From NCBI GenBank assembly GCA_029093185.1, contig GCA_029093185.1_4348.1: 43,655 bases of DNA; one strand, 5' to 3'. Position numbers and translations under genes: made by a program. The notes under the pieces were generated by a model. It searched no databases and was not told the origin of the DNA. It was given only the letters and a program-made list of their open reading frames with translations. Every line of letters begins with the position of its first letter. The stretch's first letter is position 1. This document shows positions 8,916 through 29,748 of the stretch, piece after piece. Origin of the DNA: a phage.

Positions 8916-9106
8916 TTTACATTCTCCTTAATCCACGCTTCTACTTTCTCCGGGTCGAACGTACCAGGCTGCCGGCGGCCCATAATACGGATACAACAAT
9001 CCGGGAACTTCCCACTCTTTAACCAGTTATTCAGCGTGCGACGAGTAACCCCGATACGCTCAGCTACCTCATTCTGTGTCATTCTCAAACCCTCATTATC
9101 AGTCAA
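8912..9106 (-). CDS. AlpA/excisionase-like HTH DNA-binding protein
   Basis: 64 aa; LRMTQNEVAERIGVTRRTLNNWLKSGKFP; first gene of the minus-strand operon. Confidence 0.6.
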   Translation of the reverse strand: MTDNEGLRMTQNEVAERIGVTRRTLNNWLKSGKFPDCCIRIMGRRQPGTFDPEKVEAWIKENVK

Positions 9107-9522
9107 CGAAACTTAGTATACATTGCGAATAATGGGAAATCAAACATAATCGCACCTATTGACATTATGAAAATCTTCGTTTAAGGTGCTTTTGTATCTT
9201 AGTTACTTTGATTCCTGTTCACCTTGTAAAACCGCTTAAAACGCAGCTGCGCGCAGCGCAAGCAAAGTGTTAAGCGAAAGTTTACTGAACATAAGAATTA
9301 TCGTAACTTTCCTTCCTAAGTATCTCCGGTTGCCCTGGGCAAGCTCTATTCTCATCGGCAGCATATCTCTTAAGTATCTGATTTTCTTAATGTGCCGTAG
9401 ATTCGCAACCGTAAAAATGTAACGATTATTGGGCAGGCTTAAGCCTGCCCTTTAGCTACCAAGTAATAAGAATAAAGGCACAACCCTCCCCGAAGAATCA
9501 CAACGGCAACGTAACTATTCTC

Positions 9523-9556
9523 TTGCACACCCCAACATAATAGGTTACTATTCACT
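9523..9556 (+). promoter_or_regulatory. Early promoter (TTGCAC-17-TACTAT) with operator palindrome
   Basis: TTGCAC 9523-9528, 17-nt spacer, TACTAT 9546-9551; TAATAG-GTTA-CTATTC overlaps the -10. Confidence 0.55.
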
Positions 9557-9585
9557 TATCGAAACGAGACATAAGGAATTTAGAA

Positions 9586-9804
9586 ATGAACAAAGCGACC
9601 GCAAGCGTAGTTTCCGCAATCAAACAAGTTTACGGCATCGATATTTCAGAGCGCGTAATTATCGGGAACAAACGCAACTTCTTTACGTTCGGCACCGACG
9701 GTATGGATGGAAACGATTTTAACAACGTACAACGTTTCGCTATCGGTAAGGGGCTTCGTAATGAGCCTGCGGGTTACAAGAAATTCGCTATCTACTTTAA
9801 ATAA
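9586..9804 (+). CDS. Hypothetical early protein
   Basis: 72-aa ORF, first gene after the divergent control region; AAGGAA Shine-Dalgarno. Confidence 0.55.
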   Translation: MNKATASVVSAIKQVYGIDISERVIIGNKRNFFTFGTDGMDGNDFNNVQRFAIGKGLRNEPAGYKKFAIYFK

Positions 9805-9925
9805 ACCCACGGCATCTAATCATGATGCTCGTGCCGACGACTCTGAGGGAGGTTGCCGTGAATAATTACCCGTTTATTTTAATTGTCAGCGCTGTTTATG
9901 AGGCGCACGCGTTGTGGGGGTTGGT

Positions 9926-10120
9926 ATGAGTCCGTATAACCGGTTTCGTCTGGAGCGTCTACGTCACGGATTAAGTAACGCTAAATTAGCTCTCGATATA
10001 TGGGAAAGTACGCCGTATTTTTCCTCGAAGGCATGGTTTGTCGCTCGCGCTACAGCGTCCGTTCAGTACCGGGAATACAAGTTAAACAGTTTCCTTAAAC
10101 ACCATGGGGCTAAGTTATGA
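9926..10120 (+). CDS. Hypothetical early protein
   Basis: ORF 9914..10120 (GTG); the ATG at 9926 has a G-rich Shine-Dalgarno upstream. Confidence 0.4.
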   Translation: MSPYNRFRLERLRHGLSNAKLALDIWESTPYFSSKAWFVARATASVQYREYKLNSFLKHHGAKL

Positions 10121-10278
10121 GAGAAGCATTCGAACGGTGGGCCGTCGTCGATGGTCTGCCGGTTAATAAGGGTTCGAAGAAAGAGTACCTGAACGTTAAG
10201 ACGCGTCTTGCGTGGCGGGCGTGGAAAGCTGGTGCGCAATATCGGGCCGGTGTAACAGGCGGTGTAACAGGTCAATAG
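10117..10278 (+). CDS. Hypothetical small protein (53 aa)
   Basis: ATG overlaps the upstream stop (ATGA); below the 60-aa cutoff of the ORF track, found by reading the frame. Confidence 0.35.
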   Translation: MREAFERWAVVDGLPVNKGSKKEYLNVKTRLAWRAWKAGAQYRAGVTGGVTGQ

Positions 10279-10426
10279 GTTACTATTTGTCTTTGTGTCT
10301 TACGCTGCTACACAGCAGCGTACAACTTTAACTTAGTGTCGTCAAAAGGCGACACTTCCATAAGACACTGTTGGGGCAGGGATAAAGTGTCCCCAGTTAG
10401 CGACACTAAGCACCAATAAAATTTAC

Positions 10427-10455
10427 TTGCACACTAGGATAGAATAGACTACTAT
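10427..10455 (+). promoter_or_regulatory. Internal early promoter with perfect GAATAG-N4-CTATTC palindrome
   Basis: TTGCAC 10427-10432, 17 nt, TACTAT 10450-10455; GAATAG-ACTA-CTATTC. Confidence 0.5.
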
Positions 10456-10486
10456 TCATTTACACGAACGAGAGGAGATACGGAAG

Positions 10487-10636
10487 ATGGTTACTTTGAT
10501 GGTTATGGAATTCGAAAACAGCGCAGCAACTTACCGTGAGATGACTATGGCGCAGGCGTATCACCTGGCCTCAAACGGCAACTTCTACAAGGCGCAAATC
10601 ATCAACGAGTTTGGGGTAATTGACTATGAATTTTAG
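10487..10636 (+). CDS. Hypothetical small protein (49 aa)
   Basis: ATG preceded by GAGGAGA; read manually, below the ORF-track cutoff. Confidence 0.4.
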   Translation: MVTLMVMEFENSAATYREMTMAQAYHLASNGNFYKAQIINEFGVIDYEF

Positions 10637-10898
10637 CAGCTACACCGTTACCGTTGATTTTGAGGGGCTGGAGTTGCCCCTCCCCAACAACTACAGATAT
10701 GTCACGCGCGACCGTAACGGGTTTATCCAGGGGTGGCGGAACAAACCGACAGATACTGAGTTCGGGATGTCGGGCGGCGAAGAGTTGCCTATCACTTTCG
10801 GGCATCAGAGTAGCAGCGAAGAGCTTAAAACTGTGATTCGTAAGTATCGCCGCCGCGGTAACACTGGGCTTATAGCAATAACAGGTGCTGTTGAATAA
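10620..10898 (+). CDS. Hypothetical early protein
   Basis: 92-aa ORF overlapping the upstream small ORF. Confidence 0.5.
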   Translation: MTMNFSSYTVTVDFEGLELPLPNNYRYVTRDRNGFIQGWRNKPTDTEFGMSGGEELPITFGHQSSSEELKTVIRKYRRRGNTGLIAITGAVE

Positions 10899-10927
10899 GC
10901 GAGAGGAGAGACAAAGGTGAAAGAGCT

Positions 10928-11131
10928 ATGACCAGCATCTTATTTATCTGGGTATTGTCCGCAGGCCAGATGCAACTCGCAGCATCGGAAACGTTTTACT
11001 CGATGGAGGCGTGCCAGTCAGCGGCACGCGCTGCAGAGAACGCGCACTTTCTGTTTCAGGGCGACAAGCCCAACGATTCAGAGGTACGCGCTATCTGCTC
11101 ACCTAAGCGACTTGGTAAACAGGAGAAGTGA
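10928..11131 (+). CDS. Hypothetical protein with N-terminal hydrophobic segment
   Basis: 67 aa; N-terminus ILFIWVLSAGQMQLAA looks like a signal peptide or membrane anchor. Confidence 0.45.
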   Translation: MTSILFIWVLSAGQMQLAASETFYSMEACQSAARAAENAHFLFQGDKPNDSEVRAICSPKRLGKQEK

Positions 11132-11325
11132 TTATGGTACGGTTATATGAAGCACGAGGGACTGAATTAGGGGGCGACGCATTCTACGAAGATTGGGTTG
11201 AGGTTGTTCGGTATGAAGATTACGCGAAACTTGAAGCTGAGTTACAGAAATACAAAGACCAGTACCCTGATTACGTCGAGTGCGCGAACTGCGGGTCGGT
11301 TACACATGTGGAAGGGGTGGAGTAA
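11128..11325 (+). CDS. Hypothetical protein (paralog pair, member 1)
   Basis: 65 aa; YEDYAKLEAELQKYK motif shared with the next gene. Confidence 0.5.
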   Translation: MIMVRLYEARGTELGGDAFYEDWVEVVRYEDYAKLEAELQKYKDQYPDYVECANCGSVTHVEGVE

Positions 11326-11519
11326 TGGTGCAGAGATATGAGGTAAAAGCGTGGGGCCTGCCAGAGCCTGAGATGGCTGAGTACGCATACGGCGATTATG
11401 TAGAATATGACGCTTATCTGAAACTTGAAGCAAAGTTACGTGAATTCGCTAAGCAGGTGCTAGATAGCCCGTGTGACTGGAAGACAAATGAATTAGCGCG
11501 CGAGATTCTTGGAATATGA
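11325..11519 (+). CDS. Hypothetical protein (paralog pair, member 2)
   Basis: ATG 11325 overlaps the upstream stop (TAATG); YDAYLKLEAKLREFAK motif. The ORF track's longer version starts at GTG 11280. Confidence 0.45.
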   Translation: MVQRYEVKAWGLPEPEMAEYAYGDYVEYDAYLKLEAKLREFAKQVLDSPCDWKTNELAREILGI

Positions 11520-11809
11520 GCCTTGCAACTGACATCCTGAAACGAAGCGGCCTTGCGCCGCTGTCACCGAGAGCGAAGACACGTATACACAAGCGTCGCC
11601 GTAACGTGCTGTACCCAGAGATACAAGAACGGCGTAAAGCTATCCGCGCCTGTGGATTCCAGAACGGAAAGGCCGTGAATCTCGGTGAGTTTAAAACAAA
11701 GGAACGCGCAGCTATCGCGAACCGGCTATTTAATTACTGGAAATCGCTGGGGTACGATGATATTCCGACGAAACCACAGAGACGACAATACATCTGGAGA
11801 CATAAATGA
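11516..11809 (+). CDS. Hypothetical basic protein
   Basis: 97 aa, Lys/Arg-rich. Confidence 0.45.
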   Translation: MSLATDILKRSGLAPLSPRAKTRIHKRRRNVLYPEIQERRKAIRACGFQNGKAVNLGEFKTKERAAIANRLFNYWKSLGYDDIPTKPQRRQYIWRHK

Positions 11810-12246
11810 CTACTATCGCGTTTGACGGAAAGACAATGGCCTGTGATACCCGTGTTGTGTGCGGGAGTAACTGTTACAACACAGACACAAAGATATACGA
11901 GAACGAATTTGTTGTTATTGGGGCGGCTGGCGATGCAGGGGTTGGTATCCTTTTAGTGGAGGACGATAGTATTTTAGTGCCTAAGCACTACGATTTTGAT
12001 TTCTCTGCCTTGGTGTGGGTTAAAGACATCGAAACGTTGTGTAGGGTGGAGTTCTATAAATCTTGGGATTGTGCTCTTAGTTTGGTTATTCAGATTGCGG
12101 ACAGCTTTTCCGCCGTTGGTTCAGGCGCCCCTTATGCCCTAGCGGCTATGGAATGTGGGTATTCGGCGCAAGGTGGTGTAGCAGTTGCATCGAAGTTCGA
12201 CCCTGACACCGGCGGCAAGATTATTACCAAACAACTATTAGGATAA
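11806..12246 (+). CDS. HslV/proteasome-beta-like Ntn-hydrolase (putative peptidase)
   Basis: 146 aa starting M-TTIAF; DGKTMACDTR (Asp17 region), TDTKIY (Lys33 position), VIGAAGDAGVG, and AVGSGAPYALAAME resembling the HslV GSGGPYA segment. Confidence 0.5.
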   Translation: MTTIAFDGKTMACDTRVVCGSNCYNTDTKIYENEFVVIGAAGDAGVGILLVEDDSILVPKHYDFDFSALVWVKDIETLCRVEFYKSWDCALSLVIQIADSFSAVGSGAPYALAAMECGYSAQGGVAVASKFDPDTGGKIITKQLLG

Positions 12247-12305
12247 TTCCTACCCGTGGTATCCTCCAGTTACTGCATACTTAATACGCACCTGGAGGAT
12301 TCATC

Positions 12306-12614
12306 TTGGATAAATTTACTGAAACTGTGACGGGGTGGCTTCTCGCTGCCGCACTAGCCGGAGGGGTAATCGGACTAAGGCAACATAAGTCCGCTATTTC
12401 CGGCCCTATCGACGGCTTCTGCTTTATTGCAACTGGCTTCACTTGCGCCGTATTTGGCGCACCTCTCGCAGCTCAATGGTTTGGAATCACGGGCGACCGT
12501 GAAATCGCAGGCCTGGGCTTCATTATCGCTATTCTCTGGATGCCTATCTATTCCCGTCTGTCCGGTATCGTCGCCGGAGAATACATCGCACGTCGAGGAG
12601 GCCCGGATGAATGA
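12306..12614 (+). CDS. Putative holin (three predicted transmembrane segments)
   Basis: 102 aa; three hydrophobic stretches and a charged C-terminus; directly upstream of the endolysin. Confidence 0.5.
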   Translation: MDKFTETVTGWLLAAALAGGVIGLRQHKSAISGPIDGFCFIATGFTCAVFGAPLAAQWFGITGDREIAGLGFIIAILWMPIYSRLSGIVAGEYIARRGGPDE

Positions 12615-12879
12615 GTTATTCTGGTTCTGCGGTATGCTGGCAATCGGAGGCACATCGCTGTTTAATGTGTATCATCCCAGCGTTGACGACGGGCTATTTG
12701 GCCGGGTGCTCTATATCCTGACTGCTATTGTCTGCGCCGCAGGATGTATCCACCTGTTACAGGGCAGCATGTCTCCGACGCTGCCTGAGACATTAATCAC
12801 ATTAGTTGCGCTGCGCCAGATTCGTCAGGCGTGGCTGTCATACGGAGGACATAAGCGTGTCTCGAAACATTTCAGATAA
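12607..12879 (+). CDS. Putative second holin/antiholin membrane protein
   Basis: ATG 12607 overlaps the upstream stop (ATGAATGA); two hydrophobic segments; in frame with the ORF-track entry 12427..12879. Confidence 0.4.
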   Translation: MNELFWFCGMLAIGGTSLFNVYHPSVDDGLFGRVLYILTAIVCAAGCIHLLQGSMSPTLPETLITLVALRQIRQAWLSYGGHKRVSKHFR

Positions 12880-13345
12880 TGGATTGCATTTTACCGCTGC
12901 ATTCGAGGGGTTCCGTGGAACTGCGTATCGTGCTACGCCGAACGAGAAGTACCTTACTATTGGCTACGGAAGCTACGGCCCTCATGTGTATGAAGGGCAG
13001 AAGATTACGAAGGGTCAGGGACTCCTGTTACTGAATCGTGATATGGCTAAGGCCGTAGCTGCGGTTGACGCAGCGGCACACCACTCCCTGACACAGGCAC
13101 AGTTCGATGCAGTGTGCGACCTGGTCTATAACGCTGGTGCTGGTGTGATTGCCGCTGCCACCGGTACGGGTAAGGCACTGCGTTCCGGTGATGTTGCGAC
13201 GCTGCGGGCTAAGCTGGCGTTGTTCATCAACCAGAACGGCAAACCATTACTCGGCCTGCGCCGCCGTACAGCTGGTCGTCTGGCGCTGTTCGACGGTAAA
13301 CCGTGGCAGGAGGCAGAGGCTATCGGGCGCGCGGTGAAAGGTTGA
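12857..13345 (+). CDS. Endolysin, lysozyme-like (GH24/T4-lysozyme-like fold)
   Basis: FEGFRGTAY...TIGYG matches the T4-lysozyme catalytic Glu and TIGIG region; GTG 12857 has a GGAGGA Shine-Dalgarno 7 nt upstream (the ORF track starts it at 12806). Confidence 0.7.
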   Translation: MSRNISDNGLHFTAAFEGFRGTAYRATPNEKYLTIGYGSYGPHVYEGQKITKGQGLLLLNRDMAKAVAAVDAAAHHSLTQAQFDAVCDLVYNAGAGVIAAATGTGKALRSGDVATLRAKLALFINQNGKPLLGLRRRTAGRLALFDGKPWQEAEAIGRAVKG

Positions 13346-13411
13346 CACTTAGGACTAATCAGACGATACTTAAGTCACCTCCTGTTCCACCCCTCTGCTC
13401 TCCAGTTTTAT

Positions 13412-13441
13412 CCCGGCCCTGACCCAGCCGGGATTTTTTTA
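13412..13441 (+). terminator. Rho-independent terminator after the lysis cassette
   Basis: CCCGGC (13412-13417) / GCCGGG (13427-13432) followed by ATTTTTTTA. Confidence 0.6.
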
Positions 13442-13462
13442 TCTATTTTCTGCGATGACTAG

Positions 13463-13491
13463 TTGACTATTATCTATGACCATATTATATT
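13463..13491 (+). promoter_or_regulatory. Sigma70-like promoter
   Basis: TTGACT 13463-13468, 17-nt spacer, TATATT 13486-13491; immediately downstream of the terminator. Confidence 0.5.
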
Positions 13492-13525
13492 TACTCCATC
13501 GACAACGAGAACGGAGTAGAGAGAA

Positions 13526-13714
13526 ATGATGACTAAGATTAAGCATACCGATAACTGGGGCGATTCCATGGAGATAGATAAGCTCCGGGACGGGACATTA
13601 CTTATAACTTGTACTGACGTAGATAGCGGCGAATTGGTTAGTGTTAACGTGAGTATGGATGATTTTATGATTATTGTTGGGCAAGTGGCAGCTTTTTACG
13701 GAGATGATAGATGA
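13526..13714 (+). CDS. Hypothetical protein
   Basis: 62-aa ORF; GGAG-type Shine-Dalgarno. Confidence 0.5.
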   Translation: MMTKIKHTDNWGDSMEIDKLRDGTLLITCTDVDSGELVSVNVSMDDFMIIVGQVAAFYGDDR

Positions 13715-13860
13715 AAATCACGGATATCGATGCATTCGAAGACGCACAACTGATGGCACGTATCGCCGTTAGTAACCTGAGCGGCAATATCCCGGCGGAT
13801 GCGTTCTGGTCCGCTGCGATGCAGGCACTGAAAGCAGCTTATGCAGGAGGGGAGAAATGA
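13711..13860 (+). CDS. Hypothetical small protein (49 aa)
   Basis: ATGA overlap with the upstream stop; read manually. Confidence 0.35.
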   Translation: MKITDIDAFEDAQLMARIAVSNLSGNIPADAFWSAAMQALKAAYAGGEK

Positions 13861-14018
13861 GCGAACAAGGTCAAGTAAGCCAACCGTTACGAGTAGGCCG
13901 TAAAGTCAACCACACCCCGTTCCCGACACGCGAGGAACTTATGAAACGCAGCAGTTTCCCGGGGCCGGACAAGAACAAGTATCTCAATCGCATGTGGGGA
14001 GAGCGTAAAAATGACTGA
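13857..14018 (+). CDS. Hypothetical small protein (53 aa)
   Basis: ATG at 13857, 4-bp overlap with the upstream gene; GGAGGGG Shine-Dalgarno. Confidence 0.35.
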   Translation: MSEQGQVSQPLRVGRKVNHTPFPTREELMKRSSFPGPDKNKYLNRMWGERKND

Positions 14019-14196
14019 CCGTGAATACGAAAAGATGATGGTAGAGGCGGTTAACAGCGGCGTAGACATCGGTCATGTGATGCACGTCCTGAATACTAAA
14101 ATCGCGGTAGCCGAGCAAATGGTGGAGTCGCTTTATGAGACGCGCCGCGAACTGATTAACCGCTTCAACCTGAACAAAGGTGACACCAATGCCTAA
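14011..14196 (+). CDS. Hypothetical protein
   Basis: 61-aa ORF overlapping its neighbours. Confidence 0.45.
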   Translation: MTDREYEKMMVEAVNSGVDIGHVMHVLNTKIAVAEQMVESLYETRRELINRFNLNKGDTNA

Positions 14197-14488
14197 AATC
14201 ACAATTGCATCGCTCGAGCGCCGTATTATGGTGCTTGAGTCGGAGAAACAGACGTTAGGCGGGCAACTGTCAATTAACGGTGAGTTTCAACTGGAGGCGT
14301 ATAAAGAACTTCTAGAGGCGTTTAAAGAGCTACAAGCCATCGCGTCTGACATAGAAAATATGATTGGATTGTTGCAATCCGGGGAGTGGGCCGAACACTG
14401 CACTAAATCGGCGTTAGGAAAACGGCTTGAGACGGAGATTACTGACATGCTGAGTTGTCTTGTTGAGGCGCCAGATGAGCACGCCTGA
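14189..14488 (+). CDS. Hypothetical coiled-coil protein
   Basis: ATG 14189 preceded by AAAGGTGA (ORF track starts at GTG 14180); Leu/Glu heptad-like sequence. Confidence 0.45.
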   Translation: MPKITIASLERRIMVLESEKQTLGGQLSINGEFQLEAYKELLEAFKELQAIASDIENMIGLLQSGEWAEHCTKSALGKRLETEITDMLSCLVEAPDEHA

Positions 14489-14657
14489 GCCGGTAGTTAT
14501 CGATGGCGTCCTGTGGAAACCTTACTCGGTTAACCACATCGACGCCGATGGGAAGAAGTTCAGTTTCTACATTTTTGCGATTAGCCGTGAGCACGCTGCG
14601 TGTGTAGTAGACGATATACGAGAAACGGCGTGGCTTGGCGATGAGATAGTGGGGTGA
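14475..14657 (+). CDS. Hypothetical protein
   Basis: Internal ATG (MSTPEPVV) of ORF 14460..14657, overlapping the upstream gene end. Confidence 0.4.
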   Translation: MSTPEPVVIDGVLWKPYSVNHIDADGKKFSFYIFAISREHAACVVDDIRETAWLGDEIVG

Positions 14658-14744
14658 GAGCATGAGTCTTGAGGTTGTTATAAGTCTGGTTGGTCTTAGT
14701 TACTTCATTGGGCTATTGGTCGGTTTTCTGTGGGGTAGATACTA

Positions 14745-14915
14745 ATGTTCAGCGACATCAACGCAGCAATCGAAGAAGCAATCTGGCGCCGTTACAACGG
14801 CGAGCAACAGCGTCACTTCTGCCTGGTGCAACGTGGTAACATGGTCGCCGTGGTGCAGGACCGCGATAACAAATATCCGAATGCGATGTGGACAACGAGG
14901 AATTTCTTAGGATGA
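14745..14915 (+). CDS. Hypothetical small protein (56 aa)
   Basis: Read manually: ATG 14745, stop TGA 14913-14915. Confidence 0.3.
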   Translation: MFSDINAAIEEAIWRRYNGEQQRHFCLVQRGNMVAVVQDRDNKYPNAMWTTRNFLG

Positions 14916-15148
14916 TTACCAGCATTCCTAACCTGATTAAAGAATTTGGTACGATGGCGGAGACATGCCGACAAACCGGTATCAACGAAATGACGATTGC
15001 TAAGTACAGTAAAGACGTTGATTGTGAGCGCCACGTAATTTATAACAATCGTCTGATGACGCACGTTAAGACTAGCCCGGTGTTATTCACGCGCCGTGGT
15101 ATCACTAAAACTGAGCAACGTATTGCTAAAGAGGAGAGTGGGGAATGA
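14912..15148 (+). CDS. Small putative HTH protein just upstream of the terminase genes
   Basis: ATG 14912 overlaps the upstream stop; HTH-like segment MAETCRQTGINEMTIAKYSKD. Confidence 0.4.
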   Translation: MITSIPNLIKEFGTMAETCRQTGINEMTIAKYSKDVDCERHVIYNNRLMTHVKTSPVLFTRRGITKTEQRIAKEESGE

Positions 15149-15251
15149 GACTACTAGTCTTTCCGAATTCCTGGGCTATCGCCGTAGCTAACGACCATTA
15201 CGGCGGCGACGGTAAACGAGCGCCACGCCACGGCCTATATAACTGATACAA

Positions 15252-15274
15252 GCCCTCTACGGAGGGCTTTTCTG
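15252..15274 (+). terminator. Rho-independent terminator
   Basis: GCCCTC-TACG-GAGGGC followed by TTTTCT. Confidence 0.55.
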
Positions 15275-15367
15275 TACATCCCGCCCAATCCCCTTATATA
15301 ATCCCTTTAGACGCGTAGGGCGCGTCTGGTGCGCTCTGATGGTCAGACGCATATGCAAGGGGATTCT

Positions 15368-15913
15368 ATGAAGCTGAAACTTAAGCAGCCATCGCCAGAG
15401 GTGGTGCAAGCTGCACATGAAGAAGCCGTTAGCGCAAACCGTCGCCGTAAACGACCGCGCGGTAAACAGAGCATTTATCAATCATCCCGTAATTCCGCCG
15501 CGTTGTGGGACCCGGACTATTGCGATGCATTGATTCGTTTCTTCGACCGCACGTCATGGGAGCTTGTACCTACGTCTAAGGGTGACGAACGCCCGCTGAT
15601 TCAGGACAAACCGCCGTCGCTGGCCCGCTTCGCATTACACATCGGCGTCACTATCCCGATTATTAAGCTGTGGCTGCGTGAGATTCCCGCATTTGCCGAA
15701 GCCTATGAAACCGCGCAGGCGCTGGAAGATGCTTATTTCACTGAGACAGGGGCCGCCGGTATCTCGGCTACGTTTGCTGCCGCTAAGCTGGGCCTCGGCA
15801 AAGAGAAACCAGTCGAATCCGCCGAAGAAACAGCACCGACTGAGATTATTTTCAGTGTTGCAGAGCCTGTAGGTAAAATCGTAACAACGAATATGGGCGA
15901 GGCAGAGGAATGA
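15368..15913 (+). CDS. terS: Terminase small subunit
   Basis: Directly upstream of and overlapping the large terminase; basic N-terminus (RRRKRPRGK); ATG 15368 has an AAGGGGA Shine-Dalgarno (ORF track starts at 15329). Confidence 0.6.
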   Translation: MKLKLKQPSPEVVQAAHEEAVSANRRRKRPRGKQSIYQSSRNSAALWDPDYCDALIRFFDRTSWELVPTSKGDERPLIQDKPPSLARFALHIGVTIPIIKLWLREIPAFAEAYETAQALEDAYFTETGAAGISATFAAAKLGLGKEKPVESAEETAPTEIIFSVAEPVGKIVTTNMGEAEE

Positions 15914-19767: not shown

Positions 19768-20228
19768 TGATGGGCTTTTTCAAAGTAACTGACGTACCGT
19801 CTCGTCGCGTAGTCCAGTACGCCCGCGTGTCTGGCTCTGGCGAGAACGTGGTATTTATTGAGGACGAAAGTGTACTCGGTACACCGGTAGATGATATGCC
19901 GTTTGCAGATAAAACCGGTATTGCGTTGCCCGCCGCCGGTATGCTTTATGAAATTCCGTATCTGGCGGACGCTGGCGACGTGTATTTCTCTGCGCAACCG
20001 CAGGACGCTGAACTGGCGGGCGGCAGCGCAACCATCACTGTCGAGGTTAAGGCAGGCAAAGCGCCGTATTCTCTGACCTGGTACAAAGACGGTAAGGAAG
20101 TGGTGAATGCGCCTGAGGAGGCTCTGTCTCTGACGGTTAATGCGGTCGGCGAATACTTCGTTAAAGTTACTGATGCCGATGGAGTAGAGGCGGTAAGCAA
20201 AGCGGCGAAGGTTACTAAGCCAGAATGA
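19767..20228 (+). CDS. Virion protein with C-terminal Ig-like domain
   Basis: 153 aa; YSLTWYKDGKEV...GEYFVKVTD resembles an immunoglobulin-like repeat. Confidence 0.5.
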   Translation: MMGFFKVTDVPSRRVVQYARVSGSGENVVFIEDESVLGTPVDDMPFADKTGIALPAAGMLYEIPYLADAGDVYFSAQPQDAELAGGSATITVEVKAGKAPYSLTWYKDGKEVVNAPEEALSLTVNAVGEYFVKVTDADGVEAVSKAAKVTKPE

Positions 20229-20231
20229 TAA

Positions 20232-20258
20232 AAGGCCCCATTATGGGGCCTTAGTTTT
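20232..20258. terminator. Bidirectional rho-independent terminator
   Basis: AAGGCCCC-ATTAT-GGGGCCTT flanked by a T-run on the plus strand and an A-run upstream; sits between convergent genes. Confidence 0.6.
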
Positions 20259-20461
20259 CAACGGAATCTTGTGTTTAAATCCTGCTCATGGACAACCCTC
20301 AGAACAGTGTCATAATCCCCGTATCTTCCAGGTTCAAATATATCTAATGCCTTGTAAGCAGACATTGCGTCAGGGAAAACCTGCAGAACCTTTTTAACCC
20401 GGCACAAGTCACCGTCGAACTCTTCATCGAACTCTTGAACTACTTCGCAAATTGCATACAT
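20258..20461 (-). CDS. Small acidic antisense moron protein
   Basis: 67 aa, about 14 acidic versus 8 basic residues; strong AGGAGGTG Shine-Dalgarno; own promoter and terminator. Confidence 0.6.
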   Translation of the reverse strand: MYAICEVVQEFDEEFDGDLCRVKKVLQVFPDAMSAYKALDIFEPGRYGDYDTVLRVVHEQDLNTRFR

Positions 20462-20488
20462 TTTTCACCTCCTGTTTAAGTTAACTGA

Positions 20489-20517
20489 ATAGTACCCTAT
20501 TATATTGGGGTGTGCAA
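20489..20517 (-). promoter_or_regulatory. Early-type promoter with operator palindrome driving the antisense moron
   Basis: Minus strand TTGCAC (rc of 20512-20517), 17 nt, TACTAT (rc of 20489-20494); TAATAG-GGTA-CTATTC. Confidence 0.55.
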
Positions 20518-20569
20518 ACTATTTATTTACGTATTCCAGTTATTCCTCCGAATTGTAAATGTTGGAATA

Positions 20570-20836: not shown

Positions 20837-21223
20837 ATGAATCTTAAAGCAACTGTCGTAGCAGGAGCATGTTTCATCATCCTGGTTTACGCACACGGCA
20901 TCTACCAGTATCGCAGCGGATGGAACGAAGGCCGGGCTAATCTCGTTTCGCAGCAACAGCAGAAAGCACAGGCTGAGTTAGCGAAGAAAACACAACGGCA
21001 GCAGCAGGATGAATCGAAGGCCGCCGCCGCTGACAACGAAGGCAAGACGAAATCAGAGGTGATTACCCGTGAAGTCGTTAAGTACATTAAAACGCCTGGT
21101 CGCAGCGTGTGCACTTTTGACCCTGAGCGCGTGCAGCTCAAGTCCCGCGCCGTCGCCAACGCCAATTCCATCCCCGGATACGACGATGATGCAGCCGCCG
21201 TGCAAACTGGCGCAGCCAAGTAG
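20837..21223 (+). CDS. i-spanin (Rz-like)
   Basis: 128 aa; N-terminal transmembrane segment (ATVVAGACFIILVYAHGIY) followed by a Gln/Ala-rich periplasmic region. Confidence 0.65.
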   Translation: MNLKATVVAGACFIILVYAHGIYQYRSGWNEGRANLVSQQQQKAQAELAKKTQRQQQDESKAAAADNEGKTKSEVITREVVKYIKTPGRSVCTFDPERVQLKSRAVANANSIPGYDDDAAAVQTGAAK

Positions 21224-27835: not shown

Positions 27836-28065
27836 TACTCATCAATGTTACTCCTGTACTCCCGTAACTTTTCCAGACTTTCAATTGCTTCCGCTAAGTC
27901 GGTTCCGGTGTCCTTGTGTCCACGTAAACCCATGCACAATAGCTTCTTCAATGCGTGCTGTAACGCCGGGTCGCGGATGTCGAAAGCGCGGAGCACATCA
28001 TAAACGTCTACTGTCATAGTGCTGCCGTGAGTATTTGTCATTGTGCGGTTGTATTTTGAAGTCAT
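27835..28065 (-). CDS. Hypothetical small protein (third gene of the antisense moron operon)
   Basis: 76 aa; ATGA overlap with the phosphoesterase gene. Confidence 0.55.
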   Translation of the reverse strand: MTSKYNRTMTNTHGSTMTVDVYDVLRAFDIRDPALQHALKKLLCMGLRGHKDTGTDLAEAIESLEKLREYRSNIDE

Positions 28066-29192
28066 CCCAGCATCTCCGGTGAAATAGTTAAACGTGCGAC
28101 CTCGCCATATTCGGCGCTATAAGTAATTACATTTGCACTGCGGCCTGACATCCACCCGCCGCGGGAGGCATAGGCGTCTTTAGCCGCTAAGGTGCGGTGT
28201 TGCTCAACAATCATGTTACGGCTTTCTACAATCTTCTGGTGGTGCAGGTGGCCTACGTGGGCGTAGCTATAGACACTCTCACCGAACGCTTTGCGGAATT
28301 TGGCAATCATAACCGGTTCGATAGCATCGAATCGCGCCTTATGCCCGTGGTGAAAGAACAACGTCGTTTTTCCGTGTTGCACCATCTTGTAAACATCCGG
28401 CGACGTATCGACAATCACTCGGCTGTCGTTCGAATATAAAACTGTGAACATTTCAGCCAGCCATACAGAGCCTACAGGGTCATGGTTCCCCTGTACGATA
28501 AGCAAGCGAACATTTTTATGTTTAACCAGTGCCATATCTACAACACAGCGTACCATACGAATCATGTAGCGGACGAGTTTCTGGTAGCGAGTGTCTGCGT
28601 CCAACACGTGACGCGACTCAGGTGTAACGGCATCCAGACTATCGAAGTGCGCGAAATCACCCAGCAGGTTAATAACTCCTGTTCCTGCATCCGGTGCTTT
28701 CTGAAACGCCGCGTCGAACCAACGAGAGAACAGGTCTTCCGCAATCTTTATATCCCAGTCGTCGCCGCTCTCGTCGGCCCAGGCAAGCATACCGAGATGG
28801 AAATCAGATACCGTGTAAAGATTGAGTAGCTTGTCGTCGCGTTTGGCTCGAGTCGCTTTAGCCGGCGCAACTGGCGTAATCTCTGACTTCATGCCTTCAA
28901 TCACGGCTTTCATCAACTCGACCTGACGTTCAGCGTCGGTGTCTGTCTTAACCCATTGCAACTTAGTATTGCCGAACTCGTCTACCAGAGACGACGTTCC
29001 TTTAATCTTGTAGCCGTCTGGCACAAGGTGGCTAACGTCACGCCCGTGGCCTACACCTTTCTTAGCCAGCTTCGCTTTACGGATACGAATAACTCGGTCT
29101 GAGATGCCGTATTTACGGGCGATGTCTACATTCTTCATCCCGGCGTTCAATTCTTCCTGTAACTGTTCGTCGGTTATTTTCTTCTGGGCCAT
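28062..29192 (-). CDS. HTH-fused calcineurin-like metallophosphoesterase
   Basis: 376 aa; N-terminal HTH (VDIARKYGISDRVIRIRKAKL); phosphoesterase motifs VSDFHLG (DxH), LGDFAHFD (GDxxD), VQGNHDP (GNHD), HHGH and GHLHH. Confidence 0.7.
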   Translation of the reverse strand: MAQKKITDEQLQEELNAGMKNVDIARKYGISDRVIRIRKAKLAKKGVGHGRDVSHLVPDGYKIKGTSSLVDEFGNTKLQWVKTDTDAERQVELMKAVIEGMKSEITPVAPAKATRAKRDDKLLNLYTVSDFHLGMLAWADESGDDWDIKIAEDLFSRWFDAAFQKAPDAGTGVINLLGDFAHFDSLDAVTPESRHVLDADTRYQKLVRYMIRMVRCVVDMALVKHKNVRLLIVQGNHDPVGSVWLAEMFTVLYSNDSRVIVDTSPDVYKMVQHGKTTLFFHHGHKARFDAIEPVMIAKFRKAFGESVYSYAHVGHLHHQKIVESRNMIVEQHRTLAAKDAYASRGGWMSGRSANVITYSAEYGEVARLTISPEMLG

Positions 29193-29257
29193 GCTTACTT
29201 CCTCGTGTTTAGGATTTGTCCTATTTAACCACAGTGGATTCCTTTAAATAAAGGCAA

Positions 29258-29584
29258 CTATTTACTTTCTGCGCCTATCGCCCACCCTGTCATTACCATT
29301 TGCAGACGGGTGGCTGTCAGTAGGCTATAGAAAGCATCTCCGTTTTTCTCTACCGAACGTATCACTGTGTAGGTTACGGCCTGCGGGGGTAGGCCCGATT
29401 TACCAACCTCCACGGCGGCCTCACACTCGCGAACTGTAGAGTCCTTGAACGCCTTTACAATAGTAGGGTCGGCTTTCCCGAGCACACCAGAAGTCATAAG
29501 AACAGATTCACTAAATACCTGTTCGCACGGGGCTCCAAAAGTAGCAAAAGACATAAACCCCAGAGCTAATACTAATTTACGCAT
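29258..29584 (-). CDS. Small secreted protein with cleavable signal peptide
   Basis: 108 aa; MRKLVLALGFMSFATFGAP signal-like N-terminus; two Cys in the mature part; no lipobox. Confidence 0.55.
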   Translation of the reverse strand: MRKLVLALGFMSFATFGAPCEQVFSESVLMTSGVLGKADPTIVKAFKDSTVRECEAAVEVGKSGLPPQAVTYTVIRSVEKNGDAFYSLLTATRLQMVMTGWAIGAESK

Positions 29585-29612
29585 AATTATACCCTCAGTA
29601 AGTTACTGGTGA

Positions 29613-29641
29613 ATAGTACCCTATTATATTGGGGCGCGCAA
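29613..29641 (-). promoter_or_regulatory. Early-type promoter with operator palindrome driving the antisense moron operon
   Basis: Minus strand TTGCGC (rc of 29636-29641), 17 nt, TACTAT (rc of 29613-29618); TAATAG-GGTA-CTATTC; a 24-bp identity with the promoter at 20487-20510. Confidence 0.55.
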
Positions 29642-29748
29642 GTAGTGTGTTAGAATAAGTTTGCGCCTAGTGTCGCACACGAAAAGCGGGTGGTTCCCGT
29701 CTGGCGCATTAACCATAACCAGTAACCTCTTAACCAAAGGACTAAAGA

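Follow-up and report, generated by a model that had tools for sequence, protein, structure and literature searches.

A probable accessory-gene arm of small, overlapping genes in three predicted units of a Kagunavirus-like coliphage

Small genes between the control region and the terminase gene

On the phage contig GCA_029093185.1_4348.1 (NCBI GenBank assembly GCA_029093185.1), which comprises 43,655 nucleotides (nt) and is referred to in its whole length as the window, we analysed a dense run of small open reading frames (ORFs), which seems to form an arm between a divergent control region (~9107-9585) and the small terminase gene (terS). Twenty-four genes were mapped at 9586-15246, all of them on the + strand, to which the coordinates given below refer unless the - strand is named; besides two holins and an endolysin, they are labelled A1-A4, B1-B7 and C1-C10. 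Their median length is 64 amino acids (aa), eight are shorter than 60 aa, and coding sequence makes up 90.5% of the interval. Many of the small proteins are strongly acidic or strongly basic, and the interval also holds a 146-aa HslV-like peptidase together with the lysis genes. The six micro-ORFs named in the original prediction (9858..9929, 10117..10278, 10487..10636, 13711..13860, 13857..14018 and 14745..14915) were all found at these positions; two further ones, 14662..14745 (27 aa) and 15145..15246 (33 aa), had been absent from it.

Selection was tested by comparing each mapped ORF with 61 related loci, with 17 off-frame or antisense ORFs as controls. The ratio of non-synonymous to synonymous polymorphism (pN/pS) ranges from 0.08 to 0.46 for every mapped ORF and from 0.73 to 11 in 16 of the 17 controls, the exception being the ORF x14287- with a ratio of 0.31 and only five hits. 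A Shine-Dalgarno (SD) core of at least 4 nt precedes 19 of the 24 mapped starts, compared with 24% of the other start triplets (Fisher p = 8e-8), and the five starts devoid of such a core all overlap the stop codon of the preceding gene. ORFs of 45 aa or longer account for 88% of the region on the + strand, as opposed to 41% +/- 9% in shuffled sequences and 40% on the - strand. Judged by these sequence comparisons, the 24 ORFs are real protein-coding genes under purifying selection.

The dense packing of real genes described in the original prediction is evident from the stop/start overlaps found in 16 of the 21 within-operon junctions (eight ATGA, two TAATG, three overlaps of 8 nt and one each of 11, 14 and 23 nt), while two further junctions have gaps of 2-4 nt. 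This arrangement is compatible with translational coupling across the overlaps: ribosomes finishing one gene would probably initiate the next, compensating for the weak SD sequences of some genes. That most of the six micro-ORFs share ATGA or TAATG overlaps with their neighbours was borne out as well, with the exception of 10487..10636, whose 3' overlap measures 11 nt. The accompanying statement that all six are preceded by an SD sequence holds clearly for four; at 10117 and 14745 the SD is weak, and both of these ORFs overlap the preceding stop codon. Three other candidates were rejected as genes: the off-frame ORF 9707..9865 as an overlapping gene (pN/pS 0.73, conserved only over its last 18 codons, because these lie inside the junction module described below), 13303..13422 (pN/pS 1.23) and 10336..10419, which sits in a non-conserved structured spacer. 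A search for tRNA and tmRNA genes found none, and Rfam yielded nothing meaningful, either for the whole window at gathering scores or for 9000-15500 at E values up to 1.

Profiles from PHROG, Pfam and NCBIfam and a public collection of 15 billion proteins were used for comparison, and annotation was compared mainly with the records of the Kagunavirus isolates Bas70 and Bas73. Automated annotation had been expected to miss the micro-ORFs, which is correct for 9858..9929 only, as the other five are annotated in Bas70/Bas73. These five all belong to PHROG families to which no function is assigned, two of them (B1 and C3) also to Pfam domains of unknown function (DUFs), and their exact sequences are public (PGAP, IMG and others). 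An annotated or database counterpart exists for 22 of the 24 ORFs, and uncalled are only 9858..9929 (23 aa) and 14662..14745 (27 aa). Since the Glimmer annotation of the relative vB_Eco_K1B4 (57 ORFs) leaves several gaps in this region, the claim of missed genes depends on the pipeline. The small-gene arm as such is already known, being annotated as hypothetical proteins in dozens of Kagunavirus genomes.

A megablast search with 9400-15300 as query against GenBank phages matched 416 records, the best being Escherichia Kagunavirus isolates (Bas70, Bas73, Bas76, NTEC3 and others) with 88-95% identity over 70-80% of the query. Because this identity spans only part of the query, the phage is a mosaic relative of these isolates; by its matches, it is a Kagunavirus-like (Guernseyvirinae) virulent siphophage, a coliphage of the Kagunavirus type, whose arm is a new mosaic combination of known parts (identity no higher than 95%, over no more than 80% of the region). 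In annotated relatives, a leftward operon, whose first gene encodes a small helix-turn-helix (HTH) protein, is followed by a control region of ~0.5 kb and then, on the other strand, by small coding sequences (CDSs) annotated as hypothetical proteins, two holins, an endolysin, more small CDSs and the terminase. Replication-type genes lie on the strand opposite to the arm at 9586-15246. The published Kagunavirus/Guernseyvirinae arms (Bas70-Bas76, NTEC3, 590B, Golestan and vB_Eco_K1B4) have the same layout from control region to terminase; compared with them, the window carries the rare cassettes A1, A2-A3, B1-B2, B7 and C1, and the 23-aa and 27-aa micro-ORFs are unannotated in the relatives checked. 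Within the control region itself (9107-9585, ~480 nt), a perfect 8-bp GC hairpin (9432-9451) could terminate transcription in both directions, promoter-like sites are found on both strands near 9115-9150, and relatives annotate differing small ORFs on the - strand.

Predicted units, conserved islands and exchangeable slots

A promoter-like cassette of 33 nt, CTTGCACAC-N6-ATAATAGG-N-TACTATTCA (TTGCAC-N17-TACTAT), occurs in four copies in the window, where none would be expected: two on the + strand (9522 and 10426) and two on the - strand (20518 and 29642). The first copy (P1, 9522..9554) is a predicted promoter with a conserved leader reaching to 9585, and the first gene downstream of it varies among relatives; its island, 9493-9571, is present in 99% of the 24 relatives that span the whole interval and form the basis of our presence map. 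The second copy (P2, 10426..10458), likewise a predicted promoter with a conserved leader behind it, lies in an island (10411-10489) present in 95% of the relatives, in which ~19 different N-termini or first genes follow. A third promoter-like site of another sequence (P3, 13463..13491, TTGACT-N17-TATATT) agrees with the consensus at 10 of 12 positions and is conserved, with its leader, in 44 loci, the first gene behind it being variable again. Intrinsic terminators are predicted at 13410..13441 (T_B, a GC-rich stem of 8 bp followed by U7, kept in 36 loci) and at 15250..15273 (T_C, hairpin z = -3.3), directly after which a promoter-like site (15273-15302, TGTACA-N18-TATAAT) precedes the terminase/structural operon; T_C and this terS site are conserved in 29-30 loci, and the promoter-like and terminator elements overall in 29-44 relatives. 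Repeated 'phage-specific promoters' and numerous terminators have already been reported for the Kagunavirus phage Golestan (PMC7203180).

On account of these separate promoter-like sites and terminators, the interval appears to consist of three units rather than one. Unit A would run from P1 and comprise the four genes A1-A4; unit B would run from P2, with seven small genes including the HslV-like peptidase, two holins and the endolysin, and end at 13410-13441; unit C would run from P3, with ten genes including DUF2737 and NinH-like proteins, and end at 15250-15273. The spacer after A4 (10279..10425) may fold into three hairpins (minimum free energy -48.8 kcal/mol, z = -4.6) and is a possible terminator of unit A; its sequence is common to only one relative (L014), and it has no clear U tract and no Rfam match.

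Along the interval, presence across the relatives alternates between values of 0.9 or more and values of 0.3 or less, changing at the boundaries of genes. Islands found in at least 90% of the relatives are P1 with its leader, the junction module at 9809-9863, the N-terminal part of A4, P2 with its leader, B3, B6, the stretch from the holins through P3, C2-C4, C6, C8-C9 and the stretch from T_C to terS. The slots between them, whose sequence is present in 13-38% of the relatives, are A1, A2-A3, B1-B2, B4-B5, B7, C1, the C5 tail and C7, with edges at gene ends. The contrast is sharpest at the promoter cassettes, which are present in at least 95% of the relatives, as against 13-22% for the adjoining slots. 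Of the micro-ORFs in the original prediction, A4, C2, C3 and C8 are core genes, and A2 and B1 are cassette genes. A heuristic count gave 28, 21, 11 and 91 pan-gene clusters in four slots. As the slot boundaries coincide with the conserved islands, cassettes are probably exchanged by homologous recombination anchored in the latter. Promoter-proximal slots that differ among close relatives are, going by their pattern, a signature usually tied to accessory, host-interaction genes.

Taken as a whole, the interpretation of the interval as a Kagunavirus accessory-gene arm, made up of three + strand units with a mosaic of real genes, seems to us well founded and quite probable. Several points weigh against it and should be kept in mind. 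The promoters and operon limits in this phage are predictions; the cassette of P1 and P2 matches the sigma-70 hexamers only moderately (~7 of 12 positions), and the conservation of its spacer points to a regulator site or to a promoter of a non-standard type. Co-transcription of units A and B is conceivable, as the hairpins at 10279-10425 lack a U tract. The pN/pS values pool relatives that are not independent of each other, the cluster counts of the slots derive from a heuristic tiling of ORFs that includes some spurious ones, and the 23-aa A2, whose coding signal is weak, could be a decaying remnant without a role.

Genes and regulatory elements of the arm

The first gene of unit A, A1 (9586..9804), encodes a basic protein of 72 aa in a variable slot (slot presence 0.21; pN/pS 0.17 in 8 loci) and matches phrog_7673, a family labelled 'internal head protein' (E 2e-25). 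It stops just before a junction module of 54 nt (9809..9865), which consists of a hairpin (9811-9816/9824-9829), the strong SD GAGGGAGG and the codon at which the next gene starts. The module is present in 100% of the spanning relatives and in ~40 loci overall, is conserved nearly base for base, and shows compensatory changes at two pairs of the hairpin stem. In ~27 relatives, the upstream proteins read into the module, all in the same frame, and end on ...TASNHDARADDSEGGCR before the stop; at least eight unrelated upstream proteins (62-97 aa) thus share a module-encoded tail, ...T(T)ASNHDARADDSEGGCR and stop (for example L002:1008-1064). This tail has 18 residues in the relatives, and its stop codon overlaps the start of the variable downstream gene. 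A scan of viral contigs found a single copy of the module per genome, confined to the same lineage, and it is therefore not a dispersed mobile element.

The start of A2 (9858..9929) lies inside this module. The ORF begins with GTG, encodes 23 hydrophobic residues and has the strongest SD of the region (GGAGGT, with a spacer of 4 nt) as well as an ATGA overlap with A3. Its coding signal is the weakest of all mapped ORFs: pN/pS is 0.41, and its variable columns are distributed 8/9/7 over the codon positions, with no third-position bias. In 12 relatives, A2 measures 17-27 aa; in L002 and L039, its frame continues into A3 as a fusion, and in L022 it carries a frameshift. A match in PHROG or Pfam was not found, and forms of 23 and 35 aa are both absent from the protein collection. 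One might therefore regard the shortest ORFs, and this one in particular, as chance ORFs or decaying remnants within conserved regulatory DNA, an explanation to which the missing codon-position bias, the varying length and frame, the lack of a family or database entry and the start inside a conserved DNA/RNA module would all be congenial. It is difficult to reconcile with the ideal spacing of the strong SD, with the use of this SD and start context in relatives to initiate longer genes that are clearly real, and with the ends of the A2 variants, which without exception lie only a few nt from the start codon of A3, a gene with a weak SD of its own; for the other five micro-ORFs and for C7, with pN/pS of 0.08-0.33, it fails. 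We consider it improbable. A2 is probably a leader ORF, which, as its position suggests, would pass the ribosomes that load at the strong conserved SD on to A3, and a function as a hydrophobic peptide is possible.

A3 itself (9926..10120) encodes a basic protein of 64 aa in the variable slot (pN/pS 0.36 in 10 loci), has ATGA overlaps at both ends and is annotated in Bas70 and Bas73. A4 (10117..10278; 53 aa, ATG start, weak SD, 5' ATGA overlap) is a core gene with a varying C-terminus, the stretch 10116-10234 being present in 100% of the relatives; its pN/pS is 0.18, it matches phrog_15836 (E 6e-31), and it is annotated in Bas70 and Bas73, its exact sequence being found in public databases.

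Unit B opens with two genes of a variable slot. B1 (10487..10636) encodes an acidic protein of 49 aa, starts with ATG behind the SD AGGAG at a spacer of 9 nt, and matches Pfam DUF7170 (E 6e-18) and phrog_4653; it is annotated in Bas70, and its exact sequence occurs on 113 contigs. B2 (10626..10898; 90 aa; phrog_1972) overlaps it by 11 nt, and pN/pS is 0.08 for either gene. The core gene B3 (10928..11131; 67 aa; 56 of 61 loci; presence 0.93; pN/pS 0.19; phrog_3766, E 4e-36) encodes a protein that, with its N-terminal hydrophobic segment and two Cys residues, is probably exported. Two acidic proteins follow, B4 (11134..11325; 63 aa; pN/pS 0.31; phrog_29624) and B5 (11325..11519; 64 aa; pN/pS 0.44), joined by a TAATG overlap. 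A Lar-like restriction-alleviation protein was considered for B4 and rejected, as the Pfam match (E 0.061) lies below threshold and only one CxxC motif is found. B6 (11516..11809; 97 aa; isoelectric point 11.2) is a core gene of 58 loci with pN/pS of 0.38, matches phrog_9632 (E 3e-54), and has homologues confined to this phage group. Its AlphaFold2 (AF2) model reaches a mean predicted local distance difference test (pLDDT) score of 67.5, with a core of a beta-hairpin plus a helix at pLDDT 78-89. Foldseek gave no significant match in the PDB; AP2 domains recur at E > 0.5 with probabilities of at most 0.33, and because these matches are non-significant, the idea of an AP2-like DNA-binding protein stays a hint. 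B6 is possibly DNA-binding. The HslV-like peptidase B7 (11806..12246; 146 aa) is an accessory cassette found in 18 loci (slot presence 0.27, edges at the gene ends), annotated as 'peptidase HslV family' in Bas73, with a Pfam Proteasome match (E 0.019) below threshold.

The lysis cassette (12306..13345) consists of a holin (12306..12614, TTG start), a second holin (12607..12879) and the endolysin (12857..13345); these genes are annotated as such in relatives, their pN/pS values are 0.18-0.35, and the endolysin matches Pfam Phage_lysozyme (E 8e-26). Ahead of the first holin lies a hairpin (12261..12300, ATCCUCCAG...CUGGAGGAU), whose stem of 9 bp (AUCCUCCAG/CUGGAGGAU) would pair the holin SD (12295-12299). 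Since the hairpin is invariant in 10 distinct relatives, it offers no variation from which covariation could be judged; from its position, it may regulate the translation of the holin, or it may be a weak attenuator. Some 7.5 kb away from the holin/endolysin cassette, we observed a gene (20837..21223) for an i-spanin-like protein of 128 aa, with an N-terminal hydrophobic segment, a Gln/Ala-rich middle and a weak match to DUF2514.

In unit C, the slot behind P3 is filled by C1 (13526..13714), an acidic protein of 62 aa (presence 0.14; pN/pS 0.34 in 3 loci), the exact sequence of which is public. C2 (13711..13860; 49 aa, ATG start, SD GGAG, ATGA overlaps at both ends) is a core gene of 53 loci (pN/pS 0.33; phrog_2180, E 1e-23) and, in the annotation of Bas70 and Bas73, forms the C-terminus (49 aa) of a CDS of 82 aa. 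Because C2 is separate behind the rare C1 here and fused in Bas70/Bas73 (L001:5430-5678), the exchange junction seems to lie exactly at the Met codon of C2. C3 (13857..14018) encodes a basic protein of 53 aa, with an ATG start, the SD AGGAGG, a 5' ATGA overlap and a 3' overlap of 8 nt; it is a core gene as well (53 loci; pN/pS 0.30) and matches Pfam DUF2737 (E 1e-8, above the gathering score) and phrog_4684, in agreement with its PGAP name 'DUF2737 family protein'. C4 (14011..14196; 61 aa; phrog_1402) is a core gene of 52 loci with pN/pS of 0.40. C5 (14189..14488; 99 aa; pN/pS 0.37) combines a conserved N-terminal half with a variable C-terminal half, the presence being 0.84 for 14188-14285 and 0.14 for 14305-14481. 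C6 (14475..14657) encodes 60 aa, with pN/pS of 0.10 and a match to phrog_10509.

The gap between C6 and C8 is filled by C7 (14662..14745), the 27 residues of which read MSLEVVISLVGLSYFIGLLVGFLWGRY; it is preceded by the SD GGTGA and linked to C8 by a TAATG overlap. C7 is intact in 14 loci, with pN/pS of 0.15 and variable columns distributed 14/7/20 over the codon positions; its replacements are conservative, one in-frame deletion of 15 nt was found, and the maximum Kyte-Doolittle value is 2.34. It is unannotated in Bas70/Bas73 and absent from the 15-billion-protein collection. From its conservation and hydrophobicity, we regard C7 as a real, well-conserved single-pass membrane micro-protein. 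C8 (14745..14915; 56 aa, ATG start, weak SD, 5' TAATG and 3' ATGA overlaps; 31 loci; pN/pS 0.22; phrog_5407) is annotated in many phage records. C9 (14912..15148; 78 aa) is NinH-like: it matches phrog_268 (E 4e-30) and its relatives are annotated NinH, its match to Pfam Phage_NinH (E 5.5e-5, 23.4 bits) lying below the cut-off of 29.8 bits. C10 (15145..15246; 33 aa; pN/pS 0.18 in 28 loci; phrog_32259) closes the unit and is annotated in relatives.

Timing, function and related phage systems

The original prediction had treated the interval as an early region, of a type that typically encodes host-takeover and anti-defence proteins. Spelled out, this would be one region transcribed early by the host RNA polymerase, with micro-proteins that shut down the host or inhibit its defences, in the manner of the class I genes of T7 or the early ORFans of T4. 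The variable slots are indeed promoter-proximal and lie directly behind the conserved cassettes of promoter and leader, and the arm adjoins the divergent control region. Small size and a strongly acidic or basic character are frequent among the proteins, and hypervariability is typical of arms-race genes. The label 'early region' is not supported for the interval as a whole: in place of a single region we find three predicted units, and in unit B no promoter-like site was found between B1-B7 and the holins and endolysin, which are thus included in the same unit. Furthermore, in the only transcriptome of a relative, obtained by RNA sequencing of vB_Eco_K1B4, NinH and lysozyme are classified as 'middle' together with structural genes, and 4 of the 57 genes as 'early', the HTH gene (gene 008) being the only one named among them; this time course is coarse (5-120 min), many small ORFs are unannotated in it, and the per-gene classes are given only in a figure (PMC12645636).

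Likewise, no significant match to anti-defence or host-takeover families (Ocr, Ard, Ral/Lar, Kil, Gam, Stp, Dmd, Acr, Tad and similar ones) was found in Pfam, PHROGs or NCBIfam; the matches of the small ORFs in these sets are DUFs or families of unknown function, NCBIfam gave no match for ten of the small proteins, and sequence searches of the PDB with B6, C9 and A1 returned nothing better than E 0.14. AntiDefenseFinder, as run by the authors of the BASEL collection, has no entry for Bas70-76, and these phages are described as highly sensitive to restriction-modification (RM) and variably sensitive to Old. In addition, A4, C2, C3 and C8 are conserved core genes and not variable ones. A role of the micro-ORFs in host takeover or anti-defence is therefore not supported, and we regard the account of one early takeover region as doubtful.

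A further explanation would see units B and C as middle or late operons associated with lysis and packaging, the small proteins of which tune lysis timing, the envelope or DNA handling and would have no part in host takeover; B3 would be exported, C7 would sit in the membrane and the NinH-like C9 would bind DNA. It would accommodate the common orientation and contiguity of the genes with the holins, the endolysin and terS, the signal-like N-terminus of B3 and the transmembrane peptide C7, the hairpin that would sequester the SD of the holin, and the 'middle' class of NinH and lysozyme in vB_Eco_K1B4 (PMC12645636), and the core genes are conserved like housekeeping functions. It is at odds with the separate promoter-like sites and terminators that set unit C apart from the lysis genes as well as from terS, and with the location of the spanin-like gene elsewhere (20837..21223), and a lysis or packaging role has neither functional nor homology support. 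This explanation can be entertained tentatively. Within the preferred reading, that of a mosaic accessory-gene arm, our best guess is that the small proteins are a mix of non-essential host-modulating proteins, nucleic-acid-binding proteins (B6, C9) and membrane or envelope proteins (B3, C7).

Several known systems can be compared with the arm. The nin region of lambdoid phages (ninA-ninI), the genes of which are largely dispensable in lambda, is likewise a run of small, overlapping and mosaic ORFs, sharing the strand with lysis and packaging genes, and NinH-like and DUF2737 proteins are found in the window too. The nin region lies between the replication genes and the Q antiterminator and is transcribed from pR. 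The phage of the window, by contrast, is a virulent siphophage without a Q antiterminator, unit C follows the lysis genes, between endolysin and terS, instead of preceding them, the arm has promoter-like sites and terminators of its own instead of being read through from pR, and the NinH match of C9 stays below the Pfam cut-off. In T4-type phages, Arbiol, Comeau and Krisch reportedly described in 2010 hyperplastic regions with promoter-early plus stem-loop (PeSL) cassettes. There as here, short conserved regulatory cassettes flank small ORFs that differ among relatives, and the slot edges coincide with the cassettes; the sequences are unrelated, however, the window has only four promoter copies per genome and a single-copy junction module, and recombination at its cassettes would have to be deduced from the slot boundaries. 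A resemblance also exists to the small, variable, promoter-proximal class I early genes of T7 and to those coliphage accessory regions in which screens for counter-defence have been made, but homology to them is lacking and the close relatives of the window are RM-sensitive.

Morons, insertions of a promoter, a gene and a terminator in the late regions of phages, are said to have been defined by Hendrix and colleagues. A cassette of the P1 type precedes two - strand units in the structural block of the window (20518 and 29642), whereas the micro-ORFs of the arm lie in multi-gene operons and are not single-gene insertions. The first of these two, at 20518..20228 (-), is moron-like and combines the third copy of the cassette, an acidic ORF of 67 aa (20461..20258) with a strong SD and no Pfam match, and a terminator hairpin. 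In the second, at 29642..28062 (-) in the tail gene region, the fourth copy stands ahead of two genes, one (29584..29258) for a protein of 108 aa with a signal-like N-terminus and one (29192..28062) for a protein of 376 aa with a weak metallophosphoesterase match (22.7 bits, Pfam cut-off 27).

A more far-reaching idea, to which we attach little credence, is that the cassettes and the junction module are dedicated exchange points, that some of the cassettes are unrecognised counter-defence or host-modulating genes, that the tail is a functional tag and that C7 represents a new family. If this were true, the tail encoded by the module (...TASNHDARADDSEGGCR) would serve, for example, turnover or targeting rather than being a mere read-through of a regulatory element, and C7 (14662..14745) would found a new family of phage micro-proteins.

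Dense operons of small overlapping ORFs are a standard feature of Kagunavirus, and the finding in its original form is therefore of little consequence. The details that deserve most attention are the conserved exchange islands, foremost the junction module with the tail that it lends to unrelated proteins in relatives, and the membrane peptide C7. It gains its use in three respects. The label 'early' is unsuited to this arm without transcript data and should not be transferred to it. Two genuine ORFs of fewer than 30 codons are left uncalled by current pipelines, one of them encoding a well-conserved membrane peptide. Finally, the arm can now be read as a map of core and swappable genes, in which the slots behind P1, P2 and P3 are the places where host-interaction genes should be looked for.

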